Below are positions 30,699 to 42,400 of a stretch of 64,000 bases of DNA, piece by piece. A program made the translations under genes and the position numbers. This stretch comes from Vermamoeba vermiformis. Taxonomy: Eukaryota. The notes under the pieces are model-generated. The model ran no database searches. It was given only the letters and a program-made list of their open reading frames with translations, and was not told where the DNA came from. The DNA lies in contig JBEWZL010000152.1 of the NCBI GenBank assembly GCA_045837725.1, forward strand, positions 434,001-498,000. The letters run 5' to 3'. How positions within the stretch are numbered: position 1 is the stretch's first letter; each line of letters begins with the position of its first letter.

Positions 30699-33652
30699 AT
30701 GGAAGTAAGTCACCGTTGCTCAATTATGACCGGCTAGATGCTGAATTTATATTAATTGACACTTATTCAGCCCCAACAACCAGCAAAATCTGAAATTGAT
30801 AACGGATTCGAGCAGTCATCCCAAGTGCTCATGGTAAGTAATTGCCATGAATTGAAAATTAAAGTTGAATGACTGCAGGTGTCAAATTTTTATTTTTCGT
30901 CGCGGATCGAGCAGTCATTGAATAAATTATTCATGATTCGGTTATGGTCAATTCAAATCACTCCCGTCGGACTATTTGATAGTCACCTAGACAAGACTAC
31001 ACCACCTGGTTTGAACTCTAAACTAATGATTCGACCAGCACGAGGATGTCTGTTTTTACTGCAACAAGAAAGATCAAGAACTCGTCTACTGCTCGTTCTG
31101 TCCAAAGTCTTATCATGCGCACTGCTTGCCCCCTGGTACTAAAATCACCACACCCCGTTGGTAAGTTTTCATCTTGTTATTTCGCAAGCATTGTTTCGAC
31201 CCGGAGTAATTATTCCCAATTTCGCGGAACGAATCTCGCTGCGGAACTGCGTCACTCGCACCAACCCAAAGAGAGGCGAGCAATGCCTCATCTGTTCTTG
31301 GGTTTCTCTTTAAATTCTGCTCGATTGCATATATACCGCTCACGTGCAAACATCTGAAATCACGTGCCAATCAATTCTACTCTGGGAAATCTCCCAAGCG
31401 TGCGTTGCTATTTTCGGCAACAATCGCGCTTACCTAATACGAAAATACTAACACGCGTTTGTTGTAACTAGGGGCTGTCCTTCACACAAATGCATGATCT
31501 GCGGTGCAGCCACATCCAAGAGTCGCGGCAAGATCTACCGTTGTGTGCTTTGCCCCTCCGCTTTCTGCTTGTAAGTTTCACAACTCATTATACTCGGATT
31601 TCAGTGCGGATGTTCCGCTGCATCTAAAACCATTGCGGCGCAGTGTGGCGATGTTTATACAGCTAGTTCGGCAATCTCTGTCATCGCTGCGAGAGAATTG
31701 CTAAATTAGTCAAATTATCTGCGTTAAATTCATTTGTTTAGCGCTCTAGTTATCTGTGATCGCGTTTATTATGATCTGTTCTCCCAATCAGCTTTGATTT
31801 CATGCCATTAAATGATCATTGAATCAAGCTTGGTTTGTGGATCGAGATCTCACTCATTCATTAACGCATGCACAATGATAATGAGCCAGCTTAAAAATTC
31901 CGAATTTAAGCATTGATTTAGATCGAATTTTAGAAGATTAAATAGCAACTGTTGTATAGCAGCTGTTTTTTAATCATTGCTGGATCCTGGCGAATAGAAT
32001 TTAATTAGCTTGTATTACAGCACCCACTTGCCTGAAGAAAGCGAAGTATTGCCGAACAATCCTTACAACTTTATGGGCTACAAAACTACTAGCTTCTTGT
32101 TCATTAAATGCAAGCCCTGTTTGGAGAAGCATCCAGAGCTGCGGGCTAAATCCACCGTAAGTGTGACCAAATCACATTCCAATCGGGACTGGCCTCATGT
32201 TCCATGTTAATACAGCCCGACAAGCGCCGCAGAGATGGCGAGGACGGATTTTCTAGCGATGAAGACGGCAAAGCTAACGACAAGTATAAACGCCGCAAAA
32301 TTGTCAAGATCAGCGAAGAAGACATGGCCACGGTGCCAGTACCGCGCCCAACACTGATCAAGACTGAAGGTACTCGCACTAAGCCCGACATTCAATTAGT
32401 GGAAGAAATCAAGCAGATCATCAACACTCGCGATCTGTTGCAAAAAGATATTGCCGATGACTTGCATGTGAGGTACGGATCCGCACCATAGTTTGTTTGC
32501 AATTCAATTCATGCAATGACGAGTAACTCCCCTATTTCTCAACGAATTACTGCACTTTTGGGGTTCAATTATAAATTATTTTCTTTTTTCACGTGCATCC
32601 AATGTGACACGCGTCACACATAAAATCTTTCAATTTTGCAAGCCCCGAAATTACGTCTTTGCTTTTCGATCTACGACAATAATTGCAGCACGTACTAATG
32701 CGTATTATCTTGCAGTCAAAGTATTATCAGTCAATACCTCAACAATCAAGCGCGCAAAAACGGATGGGACGCCCTCGAAGCCAAGCTGCGGCTGTGGACT
32801 GAACGCGTGCACAAGCGCGGGGATGAGAAGCGTGCCCCCACCACCAACACCGCTGCTGTGACCCCTGCACGCAGCGAGTCCAACACGAGCGATCAGTACA
32901 ATCGTCAAGAGGAGCACAAGGATGAGCGATGGCGCAATGACAACACGCGCCACACATCGATGCACAACACGAGCAGCAACACGCCACAGAACAGCAGCAA
33001 CGATCAGCAGCGCAGTTATTGGGACTCATACACACCGGTCAAGAACGACGGCAAGAAGAGCGCGTCATTCACGAATTACAGCGCGGGACCAGCCATGTAC
33101 GGCATGTACAGCAACGAGGGTCACATGATGATGAATGGCCACGCTCCGTCACCACTCGAACAGTCCTATGCCATGCACCAACAGTTCTTCAAGCCGGCAG
33201 CACTGACGGGACATCTGAATGGCAATTCAAGCACCAACACGTCCAACAACAGTCCTGGCAATTCATCGCCTGCCACGACACCTGCATCGAATGCCACTGC
33301 TGCGAACAACACACCCTCTATATTTAACTCGCCTAATGTACAGTTGCCGCCACTTGTCACGCACGGCAATCCCTATGAATACGCAGCCTACCCTTCACCG
33401 CACATGTTCCGACAACCATTCCCCCCGCAAATGAATTATCCCATGCAGCCTGTCAGTGGCTATGCATACCTCGCACAAGGCTTCACACCCATGCCCGCGT
33501 ATCCCATCCCATCACCGCAGTCCAATTTCCTTGCCCCTCCTATTGGCACCACTCCAGCTCACTTTGGGCGTCACGAAGAATACTTTAACAACGCCAATGC
33601 TAATGCGAACAATAGCAGCAATGCGACCGCTGCACAACAAACCTCAAAATAA
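30699..33652 (+). CDS. PHD + C5HCH-like zinc finger / Cro-lambda-like HTH protein, paralogue 1 (start tentative)
   Basis: Spliced exons give HEDVCFYCNKKDQELVYCSFCPKSYHAHCLPPGTKITTPRW|GCPSHKCMICGAATSKSRGKIYRCVLCPSAFC|THLP...FLFIKCKPC, then PDIQLVEEIKQIINTRDLLQKDIADDLHVSQSIISQYLNNQARKNGWDALEAKLRLW and an N/P/Y-rich tail. Confidence 0.75.
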
Positions 33653-33729
33653 TCTTATTCTATGTATTTTTTTATGTAAATTAACTTGCGATGTTTTATT
33701 AACCCGAATCACGTCTAGTTCTATTGTGT

Positions 33730-36700
33730 CTATTCGCAGTTAGTACGTGCAATATCTTCGTTGCGGAGTCGATTCGTGAAACACGTCACGTTTAAGTCAT
33801 TGCTGAATTGTTTCACGCAGTTGAGTGCCGCACTCTTCTCAGCGTGTTTGACTGTTGGTCCAGTGCCGAGTCCGAGACACAAATGTTCAAAGTAAATGCA
33901 GCAGATCACATCATCTTTCAAGTCACCGAGCTCTGGCAGCACTGGTTCAGCCAAAGCGGCAAGGAATGATTGGTCAATTTGATCGGCGGCCACTCGCTGT
34001 TCTAGCCAGTTAGTTCAATGTAATTGATGGCTCATGAAGCACTTACGCGGTACTGCAGTTTGAGCAGTGTATTGCCAGTCTTGTTCATCAGCAGCTGCAC
34101 CAAATCATTCTTCGGATCCACTTCGCTGACTGGCGGCAATTGACTCAACAGCTGTTCATGAATCATGCCACCACCAATGTCCCAACAAGCGTGACACGTG
34201 TCAAGTTGTCTCAGCCCACTGTCCACATAACGTGCCCCAATGAAAGCCGAGTACAGATCAGCCCACATTTGCGCGTGTTCAGGCACTGTGTAACACTCAC
34301 TCGATGCCTCGCCAGTGCTGTGCCACTGCGACTTCATCCACGCCAAGAACTGCGGACGAGTGCGAGGATTGAACTGCTCACCGAATGATTGGAACTCTTC
34401 CATTGCCATCAAATCTGCAGCACGCATGTTGAAGTTGAACAACACATTGCCGCCTTCAGATGTGTGTGGCGCGAGATTGAGTACATTGCGTGCTAGGTGT
34501 CCAAGCATATTCGGCAGCAGATAGGCTGCGCGGATGACATGATGCATTTCTGCAAGTGCGATTAATTTGTGACTATAAGTACTAACAAGGTACCTTCAAC
34601 ACTTCTCGTTCGACCGATGGAGACAAGAGGGAACTCGGTCTTGACGTCACCGTGAAAGAGATGAGCAGTCAACACGAATTTGAGCAGCGAATAGCCCAGC
34701 ACTTTCAGCTTGAGATAGTCCATGCGTCCTAACTTGCCTTGCGCCTCTTCATAGCCCATCGGATGCGTGGCAGCAGGACGAATGAACATTGACGGGTGCG
34801 TGAGACATTGCACCAAGACATTGCGATTGTTGAACTGCGTCAACAAAGGCTGCAAATTCGATTCCTGTGCTGGCGTCAGGGGCAGTGCGTCTGACAGAGT
34901 GAGCTATGAGAAGCATTGAACGATCGAAGTGACTTACCGAACTGGTCGTTGAATGGCGGGGCAGTGAGGTGGTCGAATGAGGTCTTGAGCTGTTCATTGA
35001 ACAAATAACGATTGCAAAATGAGAGGCAGGACTCGAGGCCTTGGTCGAGGTACAGCGCACCTGATGACGTGATTAATAAGACTACAACACGTCAATATAT
35101 GTGTACCAATAAAGGCCTCCAACAGGTCAGCTGACACTTTGGATCTGTCAGCGGCGAGGGCGGACACTTTCTTCGGCACAATCAAATAGCTCGACAACTT
35201 CAACTGTTCGCTGATGTCGCTCAGTCGTTTGTTGCTGACAATCTGCGCGCGCTTGTTGACCAGCTGATCTTCGCTGAACTTGGGGAACTTGTGCACCAGA
35301 CAAGCGGTGACGAGGAAGTCGAGCACTGCGTCCCCGAGATGTTCGAGCAGCTGATAGTTGTCTGGCTCTACCTCGCACTGTTCACTGAAGGCCTGGGAAG
35401 TAAACACCTAGAATACACAGTATTGTTAGGGAGGATTGAGGACCAACACAAATACGAACTCTTTTCTTCAATTTGGGAGAGTTGATGACATAGCCAAGGG
35501 ATTCTTCGAGCACGGCAATCTTTCTGAATGCTTGACGCGTGTCATTGATGTGAATGAGCAGTGCAGGGAACAGCTTGGACAATGCACGAATTTCAGCAGT
35601 CAGTCCAAATATCGAGCAGAGTTCGGGCACTAAATTGATGTCAGGTTCGGTGCTCGCGATGAACTTGTTCGATTGATCGGTGGCCGTGCGATTGATGCGG
35701 TCAAGTGCTTTGATGCTCACTGCCACGAGGGGCTGCTTCAAGTCTATGATATCGAGACCTTTCTGCTTGAAATAGTCTACGTATTGAATCGTCTCGCCTG
35801 TTGTCGGCTGTTAGTCACCGATCGTTCATTCACACAACTCTTACTTGTATTTTTCGAGAACGACGAGAGCGGAGTCTGCTTGAAATTGACATCGATCACA
35901 ATGTACGAGGTCTTGCTGTAGTCTGCGCGAATGATTCGGCCACTCAGCTCCTTGCGCAAGGACAGTCGAACTGAGTGAAGGACATCGCGCTCAGCGTCAG
36001 TCCAAGGAGCAGTCGTGTCAACACTGGCAATGTCCTGCAATGTGATGGGTTTGTGTTCTGGGCCCAGCGTGTATTGTCGGACGTAATTGTTCAGCATGGC
36101 CAATGCATTGTCATGTGCCATCAAGCTGCTCAGCTTCTCCGTGTCTATCAGCTGGGTTGACTGTTCGAACAGTGGCGTGAAGAGAGTCGCGTCGGGTGAG
36201 GCAAACAGCGACGGATTGTTCTTTGGCGTGCCCTCCAGTGCGTAATCCAGCCACTGCTTGTGAAAGGTTTTCACTATGTGGAATTGTTCCGCGGTCAGTA
36301 TCTACAACAAAATTACCACATTAGGCTAACTGCTCTGAAACCTGATTGGTTCCACTTACCACGCGCTCAATGTACTTGACACGCAGGTCATATTGCGTGA
36401 TCGTGTGTGACAGTGCGGGGATCTTGCCGCGCATGCGATAAGTGCTCCAACACAACTCGTCAGCCGTCAACAACAGAATGGCTTTTGGTCTCGAGCTCCT
36501 GTCGTGATCAGCAAACACGTCCTGGCAGGCATTAGTGCTGCAATAGAGTAAGTAGAATCGTACCATAACCTCGGTTTGATCTAATTCGAGCTGATACACG
36601 TGATATTCACGAGTGAGTTGGTCAGACGGTGCTTCTGCTGCTAGTGTCTGCGGCACCGCTTCTTCAGGAGCAATTGTTGGACGAGTGGGAGAGACGTGGT

Positions 36701-39341
36701 CAGTCTTTTGTTTCTTGGCTGTCATGCCTATCAGTCGATACACTAATGATAGTGGGTCATACCTTTGACGTCAACATGCTCATCATTCGATGCACGGCTG
36801 CGAGCTGTAGCCTTCCATCGTTCAAGCGACACTTCAACTTCACCGCGTTTGAGGGCAATCAGTGCTCCTTTAAACAACGGTATGGCCTGTGCGTCTAAGG
36901 ACGGAAGATTAAAACACAGACACAGTGACGGCTACTGACCTTTCTCAGCAACAATCATCGATCCAACTGGCTTGTCACACGAGGCGCAGATCAATTTGAA
37001 AGGTTTCATCGCTTTTTCTTTCTCGTCTGTCACTTCCCTGGTGCGCAGTGACTTCTCAGGGCCGATGATGCTGTCGCGGTGTTGTTCTCTGAAAACCAAC
37101 GAATGAGTTCGCAGTAAATAGAGATTCAACACGTACCCAATCGTAATGTGAGGATTAACAAAGGCAAGTTGAGTGACTGGACAAATGATTGCGGCACACG
37201 ATTTGCAGTGCACGGTCACATCGTCCACAGACAGTTCTGAGACTGGACTGCCATCAGCTCGGCGTTTAGTGCCTGAAGGTGACACGTTGACAGGAGTTGT
37301 GGGCACCACTTCCATGGAGACTGGTAGTGACACAGCTACGGGCATTGGTCTCTCCACGGGCACGGTGGATTTGACGACAGTGTTGTCTTCAGTGGGAGCG
37401 ATCGATTGCGTGAGTGGAACATTGTGTGCCTGAAAAACAGTCTCAATCGACTTGCACAGAGCCGCACCGAACAACATCTTTTCAGCGATAAATGCATTGA
37501 CCTCAGCAACAATGTTCGTGGTGAGGGCCATGTGTTGCTGTTCAATCAGCTTCAGACTCAAGTCCAGCGCTGCTAACTTCTCCGCGGCCTTTTTGGTGTA
37601 CTGAAACAGCTCGCTGCTGCCAGTCATGGCGGTGCCATCGCCCATGACAAACATTCCCTGGGCCATGAACATCTGTCTGCCGGCCTTGTCTTGCTGCTGT
37701 CTGAATGTGAACAGCGGGGCATTGGTCTTGCTGACGTCGCGCGTGTATTCAGCCACGACTGCTTTGATCGTGCTGGCCTTGCTCTCGTACACATTGGCTT
37801 TGCGCTCAACCACTCGCTGCACCTTGGCGCGCAACTCATCGTCCGGCGAGTAGATGCTGTGCATGTTGCGCATCAAGTAATACTAAGTGGTTCGTTAGTG
37901 GGACCGCATTGATTAGTGGTTAAGTACCTCGTGTTTGGCGGCAAGGAAGCTGCGGTAGAAAGAGCTCGCGTACTTGTCAATGACCGGTGCACCAGAGCGC
38001 AGTGTCTCAATCAATTTGTCCTTGCTGTTGATGCGCTCCCAGCTGCATGACAACGTGGATCAGCACCGCTTTTCGAGCAATGCCTCTGTGTGTTGTTAGT
38101 ACCGTTCAATAATTAAGTACTTGACGTACTCGGGCAAGATGTTCTCGTTCTTGGCTGCCATTTCGCGACACTCAAGTAACTTGCGCAGAATCATGTGCTG
38201 AGAGGTACTCGCATCAGTACTGCCTTATTAATAAGACCGTTCACTACTGACCTGCATCTCAGTGGGCTCAGTGGCTGGATAGAGGTCTTTGAGCTCGTTC
38301 AAACACTTTTTCAGCCAACGAGCTACGCGGTCCTTGACAGTGATGGGCTTGTAGAGTTTGAGCGCGAGTTTGTTGGACTCTGCGTGCACGGCGCTGATGA
38401 CGTGTGCAGTGTGATTGGCGGGCTGAACGAGCTCGTGCAACATCTTGTCGTAGAGTGGCAGCAGATAGTGCGTGTTCATACGTGCATAGTCTGTCATGCC
38501 TGGGGGCCACGCTTCAAAGGGTCTAATGCAGCAGTGAGTACTCGGCAGCACATTGATTGGCTAGCACGTACCTCAAGCGCCAATCAGCGAGTTGATGTGT
38601 CGCATCCATGGTGACGTTCAACTGCGTCAGAAGAGTGTGGCTCAAGTTGGCCTTATTGCCCCCTAATATTGATGTAATGAGAGCTAGTATACAAGAATTT
38701 AAGTACCTTGTACCACGTCTATCAGCTGCAGATCAAAGCAGTTGACTACGAAGAGGTTGAAGTCGCGTTGAAGCCAGCCAATATCGCCATGACACCTAAG
38801 CGAATTATTATGACCAAATTAGAGCGAGTTCGTGGCGAGCTAAGCTTACCCAAAGAAGATCTGGTTTGAGACTAAAATTAGAAATGTCTTAATCCATGAA
38901 ATTAAATCATACCTTGATGATCTTATTGTCAGAAAATATGACAGATAAATATTTGTGCAGGAGAGGCTTCAAGGCGATGGCGTCTACCAGATAATCAGCT
39001 TGACGCGTCGAGATCTGCATTAGGCAGATAAAGCCAATGTAGGAGAATTGACTTGATTCCTACAGAAATAAATTACTAAATTATTATCTTAAATTTTGCG
39101 CCTTATTTTGTACCTCCAAGTCAATGGCGATTTCGCTGTACTGACTCAGATCCGCTGCCATTCTCTGCAGCTCTTCCTCGTTATTAATAAAATAAAAAGG
39201 AACGCTACTTAATTCTTTTAGCGGCTCAAGCGTTGCTGGTGGCTTTGGCAACGCCATGTCCAACGGCGCAGCCTCGACGGATCCTGATAAACTGTCGGTT
39301 AAGTCTTCGAGAAAGCAATGGTTACCTTGAATTGTCTCCAT
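33730..39341 (-). CDS. Dicer-like protein: Rrp6-type exonuclease, HRDC, DUF283/dsRBD-like, RLR-CTD-like Zn domain, platform-PAZ, RNase IIIa, degenerate RNase IIIb, dsRBD
   Basis: Exon-by-exon reading gives EIAIDLE/GFICLMQIST/GDIGWLQRDF/HQLADWRLRP/YARMNTHYLL, LRKLLECREMAAKNEN, KKAAEKLAALDL, CKSC...CASC...IPLFK...RWK, QTPLSSF..YVDYFKQK..KQPLV..LVPELC, YQLLEHLGDAVL/ADLLEAFIGALYLD, YLKLKVLGYSLL/ADLYSAFIGARYVD and DPKNDL..GTGPTVKHAEKSAA. The junction at 38129-38007 is ambiguous. Confidence 0.8.
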
Positions 39342-39470
39342 CGTTAGAGCATTAATTTGGTTGAATACAAAGACATGAAAGCGAAGCAATATCCGATCAC
39401 GTGGTAGGAAATTTCAGGTCGAGCTCAAATCAAGGAGGTTAACCGGAAAGTTTATATATTACAGATGCCA

Positions 39471-42400
39471 TCAATTGGCAAATAGATCATCTAAATATTG
39501 ATCTACAAACGTCAAATTAAACCAATAATCGGTTGTCAGTTCAATTAACGTGTGCGTCGGCTTGACGTTGAATTTCAACAAAAGATGATATTTTGGCGGC
39601 AAAAATATGAAGCCTAACACTTGCGTGGGGACTGCTAACTCTGTCAATGGGGCATTGGGGTCGATCAAATAGGGCTTGAATTTGCTGGCTAGTCTTGCTA
39701 GCACGTGCTCGTGGTTCTTGTTGATGTGTTTCACTGAAATTGCACCGCGAGCACTATCGATTAACGTTATTACTATATTTGGCTAAAGTTCCGCTACTTA
39801 CTCAGTGGACGTCTCGCGCTCATTCCAAAAGTGTTCAAAGAGCACCTGTCGCGCTGTACTTTGCGAGCAAGGCGCGCTGTCAGAGTCAACTGTCACGGGC
39901 AACAACAGATCAGTGAATGACACTGTCAACGCGTCAATGTTGTCCTCGCAGTTGATGCCTCCAGCAATGTTGAAGGTAATCTTAGTGTCAAATGCCGCGG
40001 GAATGGGCAATACAGGCCTGAGATTGACCATCACGCGGTACTTGTACGGGAACTGTTCTTGTTCTAGATCACGTGCCTCGCCCGATGCCAAAATAGGCAA
40101 GTGAAGTGGTTCAATCGAATGATACAACGGCGAGTCAGCAAATGTCATGGTGACACTGTAGATGGTGCGCGGTGTATCTTTGTCAAGTCGAGGTTTGTAT
40201 GTCACAATGAACGGCAGATCCACAGTCACGTGATTGGCTCGATGTGCGACCATTGATTTGTAGGCCCGAATAATGGTTGATTTTAAGTCTGCATTGACTG
40301 CACTGCTTTGAATCTGATCGCCAGTCACGTTGTCCAAGTACACCGTGCAGTTGTGATTGTGTTGCGGTGTTAGTCGATGCAACATGACAAAGTTCTTCGT
40401 GCTCAGTTCATTTGTCTCGCGCACACGATGGAGACTATCCACGCCTGCATACGGATCAATATATGTGTCATGATGCCGACTAGTATAACTTACCTGCTTC
40501 TTGCAAGTCATTAGCCGCACTCGTGGTCAACAAGCCCTTAATTTTGTCGTTGGACAAATGGATCAAGAGCTGGTCGTAGAAATGTGCCCGGTCGCGAATA
40601 TCTGACAAGATGTTAGGACAACCGTTACAACAATTATCATCGTACCTATATCCGAGTAAAAGACTGCCATGAACATCAGCAAGGCATGAAGTGGTTCAAA
40701 AATTGACACGTTGACATGTGTCACGAGCACAGCCTTGCATATTTCGAGCAGTGTGTTGCCAGTGGTCCAATCACCTGTTTTGAGTGTCGAAGTGTAGCGC
40801 AAGAACGAGTGCAATGTCTTCAACAAGTTCACGGGTGATATTTCAGTGTCCAAGCTGATTCGATGCACGAGGTCCAAGTAATTGCCAACACGCGCTACGG
40901 GCAGTGAAACAATCTCTCGTTCAAAGTATTGCAGCAACTTGTGGTGCAGAGGGGTGTGTTCTAATGATTGCAACAATTTAATCACGCGACCAACAAAACT
41001 CGGATTGCGTTCAATGGCTTGGGAGAGGTACCTATCAGACACATTAGCTCATCAATCACTCTTATCGATGCCCGTACTTATAACTCTGATCAAACAGTTC
41101 GTTGGGGAATGTAGCTAAGTAATCTCGCACCAGCCTGAACACTATCAGCACCAAGTAGTCGTCTTTCTTGTGGTAAATGAACTCTTGAAAGCACACGAAT
41201 AGATTCAGAATGTTTCTATGATGGGTTATTTAGCATTCGAATATGGATTAGAGAATACGTACTTGATGAGGTGCGTATTGGGGTCTTTTGGTTTGAAGCA
41301 ATGGCGCAATATTTCAATCTTGGCCTCGCGCACTTGCAACACATCGAATATGTTGGGCACGAAGGATTGGTGGTTGGGGAACAAGTAGTCGTGATGTGAC
41401 ACTTGCAGCACTGACTCGTAGGGGTAGTAGGTGAGCCATTCGAGGGCCAGTACTCGCTCAGCTGTAGCGCTGTCAGAGTGCGTTAGTCATATTACGGGAG
41501 TACTGGCACGTACTTTATAGTGTTGTTCACGTGGTGGATCAGACTGACGATGAACTGTTCAAATTGCGATTGAAATATGTCGTAGAACACCGCTGAATAG
41601 ATCAACATCATGTGTTTGAGCAGTGAATTGAATGACAGGCCTAGTCGCGACAATTGATGTCTAATGTCATCGTTAGTATAGTACTCACAGATGCATTGCT
41701 GACAGCTACGTACTTGAACAGATCACGTGACAGATCAGTCAGTTGAATGAGATAAATGATGGAATATGACAGCTCGATCATTGCCCACGGTGATAAAATA
41801 GTGCTGATTTCAACAAAGTATTGGATCGCTTTTTTGACCTCCTGTAATCGATAATAGTGTTAAATCATACAATCAATTCGAACAAAATTTTACGTACAGC
41901 GTGCAGTGGCTCCAACAACAACTGTTTTGGCTGACACGGCACTTCAATCACGTGCCGTTCAAAAGCTTGGTACTTGACAATCGCGGAGAGACTGAACGGA
42001 TTGAGTTCAGTGCGTGAAGTGAACAATGAGAACGATGCAAAGCTGTTCGCCGTCAAGCCGAGCAGTTGTGACAAGAACGTTGCGAGCTCGTTCACTGAAG
42101 CAGCTGAGCCCTTTGCAGAATTCACTGAAATCTCTTCCACGACCTGCACGCACGGTCAGCACGAGAATAGTGATTGAACCATTGAACACATCAGACCTGA
42201 ATCAGAGAGCGCAACACAGTGACAGCGAGCAAGTGATATGATTGGTGGATGTGAGAGCGCTCTTGTTGGGCCAGCACAAATAAATTGCCTATTTTGGCAA
42301 CGAGCAGTCCTGGGTACTGCTGCTCCAATTCTTTCAAACTCTCACAGGCCTGTCAGAACACAATTAGAAGTCAGTCGCAAGAGCTGATGTGCACGCACTG

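Follow-up and report, generated by a model that had tools for sequence, protein, structure and literature searches.

The choice of substrate by Dicer enzymes is usually ascribed to the helicase, DUF283, and PAZ domains and to partner double-stranded RNA (dsRNA)-binding proteins (dsRBPs). A gene of Vermamoeba vermiformis encodes a Dicer-like protein with a small zinc module in its interior, and the question is to which protein family this module belongs and what it could do there. The gene lies on the minus strand of a 64,000-nucleotide (nt) stretch of contig JBEWZL010000152.1 (assembly GCA_045837725.1, positions 434,001 to 498,000), here called the window; all coordinates are window positions. 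A preliminary description of this DNA had read the module as the C-terminal domain (CTD) of the RIG-I-like receptors (RLRs). Our analysis predicts a zinc module of the beta-tent fold class, which includes the RLR CTD, and we lean toward a Yippee/Mis18-like family or a separate branch within that fold.

The zinc module and its splicing

The module is about 108 amino acids (aa) long and is encoded by three short exons on the minus strand (37230 to 37137, 37088 to 36940, and 36894 to 36763). It has two Cys pairs, HCKSC and CASC, whose spacing after splicing, counted by eye, is 53 residues. The unspliced DNA has a 316-codon open frame (36935 to 37882, minus strand) that reads ..VTVHCKSCAAIICPVTQLAFVNPHITIG, then 16 in-frame codons, and then EQHRD..KPFKLICASCDKPVGSMIVAEK; the 16 codons are edged by GTACGT and TTTCAG and constitute intron 1. 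After ..AEK follows GTCAGT..CCTTAG (45 nt, with one TAG), and then the frame resumes as DAQAIPLFKGALIALKRGEVEVSLERWK.. The peptides quoted in the preliminary description were found at the place it gave when the minus strand was translated, and they join as written there once two introns are removed, with the landmarks over both junctions present in the spliced model. The features are as follows.

37137..37230, minus strand: zinc module exon A; first Cys pair (HCKSC) and the next strand region, ending ..PHITIG (from translation)
37089..37136, minus strand: intron 1; 48 nt, GTACGT..TTTCAG, in frame and stop-free; seen removed
36940..37088, minus strand: zinc module exon B; conserved charged loop and second Cys pair (KPFKLICASCDKPVGSMIVAEK); both Pfam families discussed below align here
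36895..36939, minus strand: predicted intron 2; 45 nt, GTCAGT..CCTTAG, in frame, with one TAG; from splice signals and relatives
36763..36894, minus strand: zinc module exon C; ..DAQAIPLFKGALIALKRGEVEVSLERWK.. and the beginning of the downstream linker
36719..36762, minus strand: predicted intron 3; 44 nt, GTATGA..GACAG

We looked for splicing evidence by placing contigs and reads of four public runs (X1, X2, X6, and X8) on positions 33600 to 39600; that X1 and X2 are RNA is a guess. Intron 1 is skipped in an X2 contig (record 12, 171 nt), which matches as two pieces, 36982 to 37088 and 37137 to 37200, with 0 and 1 mismatches. The 48-nt gap between them has CT..AC ends on the plus strand, equivalent to GT..AG in the direction of the gene. 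Six of the seven joints listed for X1 and X2 have GT..AG ends on the minus strand and sizes of 44 to 50 nt, which argues that these contigs are spliced products of the Dicer-like gene; the seventh joint (35062 to 35109) resembles the intron at 35058 to 35105 shifted by 4 nt. The transcriptome sequencing (RNA-seq) runs X6 and X8, picked by species label, gave only 23 and 39 reads, almost all 90 to 95% alike (a diverged relative), with none on the module and no joints.

Among the contig pieces listed, none crosses 36895 to 36939, where intron 2 is predicted (X2 record 12 starts at 36982), and the read depth in the bin from 36816 to 37016 was 0.73 in X2 and zero in the other three runs. Intron 2 is supported as a prediction by its splice signals, by the open frame, and by the loss of similarity among relatives at its donor. 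According to the acceptor candidates and the gene model, the CCTTAG end is the only in-frame acceptor that leaves the frame open. The unspliced open reading frames (ORFs) of relatives P0003, P0004, and P0008 to P0011 turn unrelated right after ..TEKG, that is, at the intron 2 donor; those of P0001, P0005, and P0006 stop at ..HITIG, the intron 1 boundary. Both short introns of the preliminary description stand, the first because a contig lacks it and the second as a prediction from these signals. For intron 3, there is an in-frame alternative of 35 nt that ends at 36728; we chose the 44-nt form because of the distance to its branch site.

The two introns within the module are both multiples of three (48 and 45 nt). 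Because intron 1 has no stop, its retention would add 16 residues to the module without breaking the frame.

Conservation of the module

With the 316-aa ORF as the query, HMMER was run exhaustively against 1.84 billion representative proteins and matched only four, all of them unspliced ORF fragments of 75 to 260 aa; their clusters comprise 11 sequences. The first Cys pair (H-C-K-x-C) is kept in all four relatives that reach it (P0001, P0002, P0005, and P0006; P0007 ends earlier), and the second, within C-x-x-C-x-K-P-V-G-S-M-I-V, is kept in all six that reach that point. Identity to relatives in exon A is 16 to 24 of 28 residues (57%, or 16/28, in the most distant), and in exon B, it is 35 to 38 of 49 residues, or 71 to 78%, in six of six relatives (71%, or 35/49, in the most distant). 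For comparison, the linker before the module is 41% identical (39/95) to that of P0002, and the DUF283-like dsRNA-binding domain (dsRBD) farther upstream has 59 to 77 identical residues of 85 to 86 (59/85 in the most distant relative). Because the Cys pairs are kept and the zinc exons are more identical than the linker, we conclude that the module is under selection and is not a mere spacer. The best-conserved stretch is the charged loop and strand ahead of the second Cys pair (K.L..[KR]EVTDE.E.A.KPFKL).

Inside the variable linker, just before the module, the motif SGTKRR (about 37259 to 37276, minus strand) does not vary among the four relatives whose sequences extend over it. Nuclear import or modification may be its role.

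Word-indexed searches found no longer (full-length annotated) relatives with the 316-aa ORF and no relatives with the exon C ORF. The same kind of search for longer proteins with the RNase IIIa exon found two, P0013 (a fragment from a relative) and P0014 (a bacterial-type RNase III). Scans for the relatives' DNA gave 317 pattern matches in metagenome contigs and 80 in genome contigs; none of either set was confirmed.

Family assignment

The Pfam scans were run on unspliced, read-through sequence, which lowers scores; the main query was a 109-aa read-through of exons A and B. Its best family was Yippee-Mis18 (PF03226), with 23.7 bits (E value, 5.6e-5; profile positions 2 to 73 of 108), and the second was RIG-I_C-RD (PF11648), with 17.9 bits (E value, 0.0035; profile positions 2 to 74 of 117). 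The two alignments cover the same 91 residues. The gathering cutoffs are 26.6 bits for Yippee-Mis18 and 25.6 bits for RIG-I_C-RD, and in all four scans made, both families stayed below them: Yippee-Mis18 scored 20.7, 23.7, 22.9, and 13.1 bits and was the top family in three of the four, and RIG-I_C-RD scored 14.5, 17.9, 18.2, and 13.9 bits. Generic zinc-finger families matched the 109-aa piece with E values of 0.03 or worse. Adding exon C through intron 2, with the TAG read as X, was of no help, and exon C alone had no Pfam match. Among seven fragments from relatives, one (P0004) matched Yippee-Mis18, weakly, and none matched RIG-I_C-RD. A best match to Yippee-Mis18 rather than to RIG-I_C-RD, here with both below cutoff, is the first half of what the preliminary description had named beforehand as refuting it, the second half being the lack of a basic RNA-binding surface and of dsRNA-end binding.

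Comparison by a protein language model placed the module nearest to clusters of At4g08330 and Yippee-Mis18 (0.90), followed by small proteins labeled RIG-I_C-RD (0.89 and 0.86) and then by FAM72 and STEEP1. The ten best family-bearing neighbors all belong to one family or clan. These neighbors are leads only, the recognition value of 2144 being below the 2300 reached by 91 of 100 proteins of known families. Yippee-Mis18 and RIG-I_C-RD are presumably in one Pfam clan.

CULT, Yippee, Mis18, MsrB, and the RIG-I regulatory domain (RD) have been described as roughly equidistant members of the beta-tent fold, with a zinc at the apex and a conserved cradle-shaped site (PMC4287342). Weak cross-matches between these families are the rule. 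Judged by its sequence, the module very probably belongs to the beta-tent superfamily.

The narrower proposal, that the module is a genuine RLR-type CTD, a homologue of that of RIG-I, MDA5, LGP2, or DRH that would cap dsRNA ends in cis with Dicer, possibly with selectivity for 5′-triphosphate (5′-ppp), has evidence on both sides. RIG-I_C-RD is the second-best Pfam family, with 18.2 bits on exon B alone within P0012, but Yippee-Mis18 is ahead by about 6 bits and matches one of the seven relatives' fragments versus none for RIG-I_C-RD. Clusters labeled RIG-I_C-RD are among the language-model neighbors (0.86 to 0.89), and weak scores are expected, since RLR CTDs are only 21 to 22% identical to each other (PMC8464030); however, three PDB sequence searches turned up no RLR chain, even with E values up to 10. 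The C4 zinc site has an RLR-like spacing, and the conserved charged loop is where the 5′-ppp loop of the RLRs and DRH-3 lies (PMC8464030), but the spliced model of the module has 16 Lys/Arg versus 14 Asp/Glu, for a net charge of just +2 and an isoelectric point of 8.3. This near-neutral charge disfavors an RLR-like basic groove, and so do the acidic stretch of the loop and the absence of evident aromatic-cage residues (mapped by eye), although indecisively. As for context, Dicer of Caenorhabditis elegans pairs in trans with the RLR DRH-1 (PMC11095941), but no RLR helicase or pincer precedes the module here, and the excerpted surveys report no RLR or RD homologue outside animals (PMC3879448, PMC4287342, and PMC6723221). 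Because Yippee/Mis18 is widespread in eukaryotes and, in these excerpts, RLR/RD is reported from animals only, a Yippee-like source is likelier a priori.

Membership in the RLR-CTD family thus lacks both a score above cutoff and the helicase context; of these three family features, the module has only the C4 site, which is common to all zinc beta-tents. We consider such membership improbable from the sequence, and we strongly doubt a dsRNA-end-capping RLR homologue in cis with Dicer. Of the preliminary claim, a conserved C4 zinc module is supported, in the fold class to which the RLR CTD belongs; the RLR type as stated there is not, given the higher score of Yippee-Mis18 (23.7 versus 17.9 bits) and the missing helicase. 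Within the beta-tent fold, the scores lead us to lean toward a Yippee/Mis18-like family or a separate branch.

The Dicer-like protein

We built the gene model by reading the junctions one by one by eye, anchored on the contig joints. It runs from an ATG at 39341 to a stop at 33729 to 33731 (a span of 5.6 kb), has 18 GT..AG introns of 44 to 87 nt, and gives one frame of 1563 codons with no internal stop. The domain order is 3′-5′ exonuclease, short helical region, DUF283-like dsRBD, linker, zinc module (at about residues 561 to 668 of 1563), second linker, platform-like region, PAZ, RNase IIIa, degenerate RNase IIIb, and weak dsRBD. No exon of the gene had a Pfam match to a helicase family. Because PAZ and tandem RNase III domains share one open frame, the name "Dicer-like" is justified, although the enzyme is atypical. 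The zinc domain is in that same frame, so it is embedded in cis, as the preliminary description had it. The remaining features are as follows.

38252..39341, minus strand: exons of an N-terminal 3′-5′ exonuclease (DEDDy-type); DNA_pol_A_exo1 (PF01612) with E values of 4.5e-5 and 0.03 to 0.04 on two exons
37883..38251, minus strand: exonuclease-to-Dicer junction; introns 38251..38198, 38129..38043 (87 nt), and 37927..37883, from the model only
37538..37795, minus strand: DUF283-like dsRBD; in relative P0002, Dicer_dimer (PF03368) with an E value of 2.8e-4 and 21.3 bits (cutoff, 23.7) and dsrm with an E value of 0.0037
37231..37537, minus strand: Pro/Val/Ser-rich linker of about 95 residues, poorly conserved in alignments with relatives
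35460..36718, minus strand: platform-like region and PAZ, in three exons; PAZ (PF02170) with 31.7 bits (cutoff, 28.8) and a second piece with 21.2 bits
34938..35407, minus strand: RNase IIIa with intact acidic signature (LEHLGD, DLLEAF); Ribonuclease_3 (PF00636) with an E value of 1.2e-16 and 61.8 bits
34047..34890, minus strand: degenerate RNase IIIb-like domain; LKVLGY and DLYSAF replace LEHLGD and DLLEAF, from alignment only
33729..33996, minus strand: C-terminal weak dsRBD and stop codon; dsrm (PF00035) with an E value of 0.013 and 16.5 bits

X1 contigs lack two introns of the exonuclease part, 38571..38523 and about 38706..38663. The exonuclease also has an 11-nt micro-exon (38850 to 38860, minus strand), which is required to restore the ..KIFFGCHGDIGWLQRDF.. 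motif; a loose end of an X1 contig at 38796 fits it. The final exonuclease motif (about 38470 to 38500, minus strand) reads Y-A-R-M-N. We take DEDDy enzymes to have Y-x3-D at this motif, and by that comparison, the exonuclease may be impaired. For the short helical region after the exonuclease, an HRDC domain was suspected, but there was no Pfam match.

The exonuclease appears, in our gene model, to be fused to the N terminus of the Dicer-like protein, where a helicase is usual. The region of the junction (37821 to 38423) has zero read coverage in the four runs. Donor 38129 has two acceptors: the 87-nt intron, to 38043, leads into the Dicer-like part, and a 44-nt alternative (38129..38086), which has a perfect TACTAAC, leads to a stop near 38010 and hence to a stand-alone exonuclease. 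Alternative splicing at 38043 to 38129 may toggle between these two products. Fusion is favored because the exon from 38042 to 37928 has no in-frame ATG and because relatives keep the residues ("YY") just past the downstream acceptor, where P0002 has no Met. The relatives' residues ahead of "YY" are unrelated.

The DUF283-like assignment comes from relative P0002; the window copy itself had no Pfam match and no PDB sequence match. The top PDB sequence matches of PAZ were Piwi PAZ domains (E value, 1.6e-5). We infer the "platform" label for the region before PAZ from its position only, there being no Pfam match to it.

RNase IIIa matched, in PDB sequence searches, Drosha (E value, 9.3e-18), DCL3 and DCL4 (about 1e-10), Giardia Dicer (2.9e-10), and bacterial RNase III, with all but Drosha in the range of about 1e-10 to 1e-9; its internal intron is removed in an X1 contig. 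RNase IIIb had no Pfam match, and an alignment with RNase IIIa, P0013, and P0014 puts Lys, Tyr, and Ser at the positions of the RNase IIIa signature residues Glu, Asp, and Glu. Since this second RNase III is degenerate, each chain probably has one nuclease center. The intron at 34593..34550, inside the RNase IIIb region, is removed in X1 and X2 contigs, and that at 34046..33997 is removed in an X2 contig.

A possible function of the module

We tentatively favor a role of the zinc module as a tethered binder of RNA ends or terminal nucleotides that would help to select and position substrates, a predicted role that we hold to be plausible but somewhat short of probable. The helicase and DUF283 of Drosophila Dicer-2 form a closed ring about the dsRNA as it enters, like the helicase and CTD in RLRs (PMC10328071), and we favor the role because the present enzyme has lost the helicase. 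The RLR member of the beta-tent fold binds RNA ends at the conserved cradle (PMC4287342 and PMC8464030).

If this prediction holds, the two Cys pairs would grip a single zinc at the apex formed by a pair of beta-meanders, which in this fold are four-stranded and stand at roughly a right angle, and the charged loop before the second Cys pair would form, with the last strands, the cradle-shaped binding site typical of the fold. The module would hang between DUF283 and the platform on two flexible linkers of low conservation, a place fit for a tethered capture module. It could there take over some of the substrate selection that falls to the helicase "base" in canonical Dicers.

Several results weigh against a beta-tent module that binds RNA. 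Both beta-tent Pfam scores are subthreshold, on read-through sequence. PDB sequence searches with the 109-aa piece and with the A3 alignment profile found no matches, and one with read-through P0012 found no beta-tent chain but one irrelevant MYM zinc finger (E value, 0.45). The AlphaFold2 (AF2) model is poor, with a predicted local distance difference test (pLDDT) score of 40 and a predicted template modeling (pTM) score of 0.32. The module is only mildly basic, with the acidic run in its conserved loop. Finally, the nearest beta-tent families (Yippee, Mis18, and FAM72) mostly bind proteins or small ligands, not RNA.

Some of these results would also fit a module that is not a beta-tent at all but a small, unrelated zinc ribbon or pair of knuckles, or else a Cys-bearing spacer with some disorder, with Pfam matches that come from the CxxC motifs. 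All family scores are subthreshold, and zf-C2HC5, B-box, and the Sec23/24 zinc finger are also marginal; however, both beta-tent alignments span about 72 profile positions over both Cys pairs, with E values 2 to 3 orders better than those of generic zinc fingers. AF2 confidence is low throughout and exon C has no match alone, but the poor AF2 model is expected because the read-through query has 31 intron-coded residues and the alignment has 9 rows. Against this possibility also stand the language-model neighbors, which come from one clan, and the strong conservation of the region between the Cys pairs. We regard it as very improbable.

Another possibility is that the module is a Yippee/Mis18-like protein-interaction unit that oligomerizes the enzyme or recruits a partner (Argonaute, an RNA-dependent RNA polymerase [RdRP], or a dsRBP) and makes no RNA contact. 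This fits with Yippee-Mis18 as the top Pfam family and the only one of the two matched by a relative's fragment (P0004), although the score is still below the Pfam cutoff. It also fits with the nearest language-model clusters (Yippee-Mis18/At4g08330 at 0.90, then FAM72 and STEEP1), with the long flexible linkers, and with the near-neutral charge. Mis18 function needs oligomerization via the Yippee-like domain (PMC4818781). Oligomerization could matter here, as RNase IIIb lacks three of its acidic signature residues at aligned positions: because one active site per chain is left, two-strand cutting might need a dimer, and a dimer could pair two intact RNase IIIa sites. Two points argue the other way. 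After the second CxxC, the module has VGSMI where, as mapped by eye, the conserved Trp and Tyr/Phe of the Yippee/CULT cage would be (residues from PMC4287342), and the setting in an RNA-processing enzyme, beside a dsRBD and PAZ, favors an RNA role. We consider a pure interaction unit somewhat unlikely and keep the tethered RNA-end binder as the working proposal.

In the literature searched, we found no Dicer described as having a domain like Yippee or the RLR CTD, or as being fused to an exonuclease. By term counts, the words "zinc" and "exonuclease" are absent from a review of Dicer (2023) and from a survey of Dicers in fungi (2025), and the excerpted surveys of RLR evolution give no RD homologue outside animal RLRs (PMC3879448 and PMC6723221). 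A Dicer-like enzyme that has lost the helicase but gained an exonuclease and a zinc beta-tent module would solve the problem of substrate choice in another way. For the origin of the RLR CTD, a beta-tent domain wired into the Dicer of another lineage would be a concrete candidate; at stake are an intermediate toward RLRs, an independent recruitment from the Yippee/Mis18 pool, and a plain protein-interaction module. That a Dicer-like enzyme of a non-animal lineage has a true RLR-type CTD in cis is, like RLR-CTD membership as such, improbable. If true, it would mean that the CTD as a sensor of RNA ends is older than the animal RLRs and served at first as an accessory to Dicer, before its union with a Dicer-type helicase gave rise to RLRs. 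Such a CTD would work with the 3′-5′ exonuclease and the single-site RNase III in the selection, nicking, and trimming of viral RNA or RNA made by RdRP, without ATP.

Genomic surroundings

Genes in the window are densely packed, in a very compact genome; RasGEF and LIM genes are also there. The donors of the very short introns are GTRNGT-like, and their branch motifs are CTAAC/CTRAY. Such an intron style would fit a fungus-like or protist genome, and the non-animal lineage of the preliminary description is plausible on that ground. AP5B1, for the beta subunit of the AP-5 complex (39473 to 41048, minus strand), is upstream of the Dicer-like gene, about 130 nt from its start codon. Its middle and C-terminal Pfam families reach their cutoffs, and the barrel family is below (16.3 versus 21.9 bits). 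Just downstream of the Dicer-like gene, on the opposite strand, is a 317-codon open frame (32699 to 33649, plus strand) with many Asn, Gln, Ser, and Pro codons; it did not match any Pfam family.

Comparison with known systems

Like the module, Yippee/Mis18 proteins (PF03226) have two CxxC pairs about 52 to 53 residues apart, the figure of 52 being what we take to be the Yippee/Mis18 spacing. They differ in being stand-alone proteins of about 110 to 130 aa or N-terminal domains, whereas the module is inside a 1563-aa nuclease. The aromatic cage of Drosophila yippee consists of Y43, F45, W82, and Y84 (PMC4287342). Mapped by eye, the cage positions that follow the second CxxC would be Ser and Ile in the module.

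The RLR CTD (PF11648) resembles the module in its C4 zinc site, its length and Cys spacing, the charged loop before the second pair, and its context of dsRNA processing. Its Cys pairs are on strands β1-2 and β6-7, it folds as a saddle of two antiparallel β-sheets with a continuous basic surface for RNA, and its 5′-ppp loop is between β5 and β6. It is C terminal, after a Hel1-Hel2i-Hel2-pincer helicase, whereas the module is internal, helicase-less, and weakly basic.

Cereblon CULT and MsrB have the same predicted fold class as the module and hold zinc on two Cys pairs. The ligand of CULT is nucleoside-like (uridine; reference 18 of PMC4287342). However, the module had no Pfam or PDB match to either family, and neither the Trp cage of CULT nor the catalytic residues of MsrB are evident in it.

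Canonical and minimal Dicers (human Dicer, Drosophila Dicer-2, plant DCLs, and Giardia Dicer) share with this protein a DUF283-like dsRBD, platform-PAZ, tandem RNase III domains, and a C-terminal dsRBD, in the same order. Unlike them, this protein has no helicase, an N-terminal 3′-5′ exonuclease, a zinc module between DUF283 and the platform, and a degenerate second RNase III; its intact RNase III domain is closest by sequence to that of Drosha. The C. elegans complex of DCR-1, DRH-1, and RDE-4 likewise couples a Dicer to an RLR-type end recognizer and would be a functional analogue if the module binds RNA ends. In that complex, however, the sensor is a separate ATP-using helicase-CTD protein that acts in trans, whereas here it would be a small domain in cis with no ATPase.

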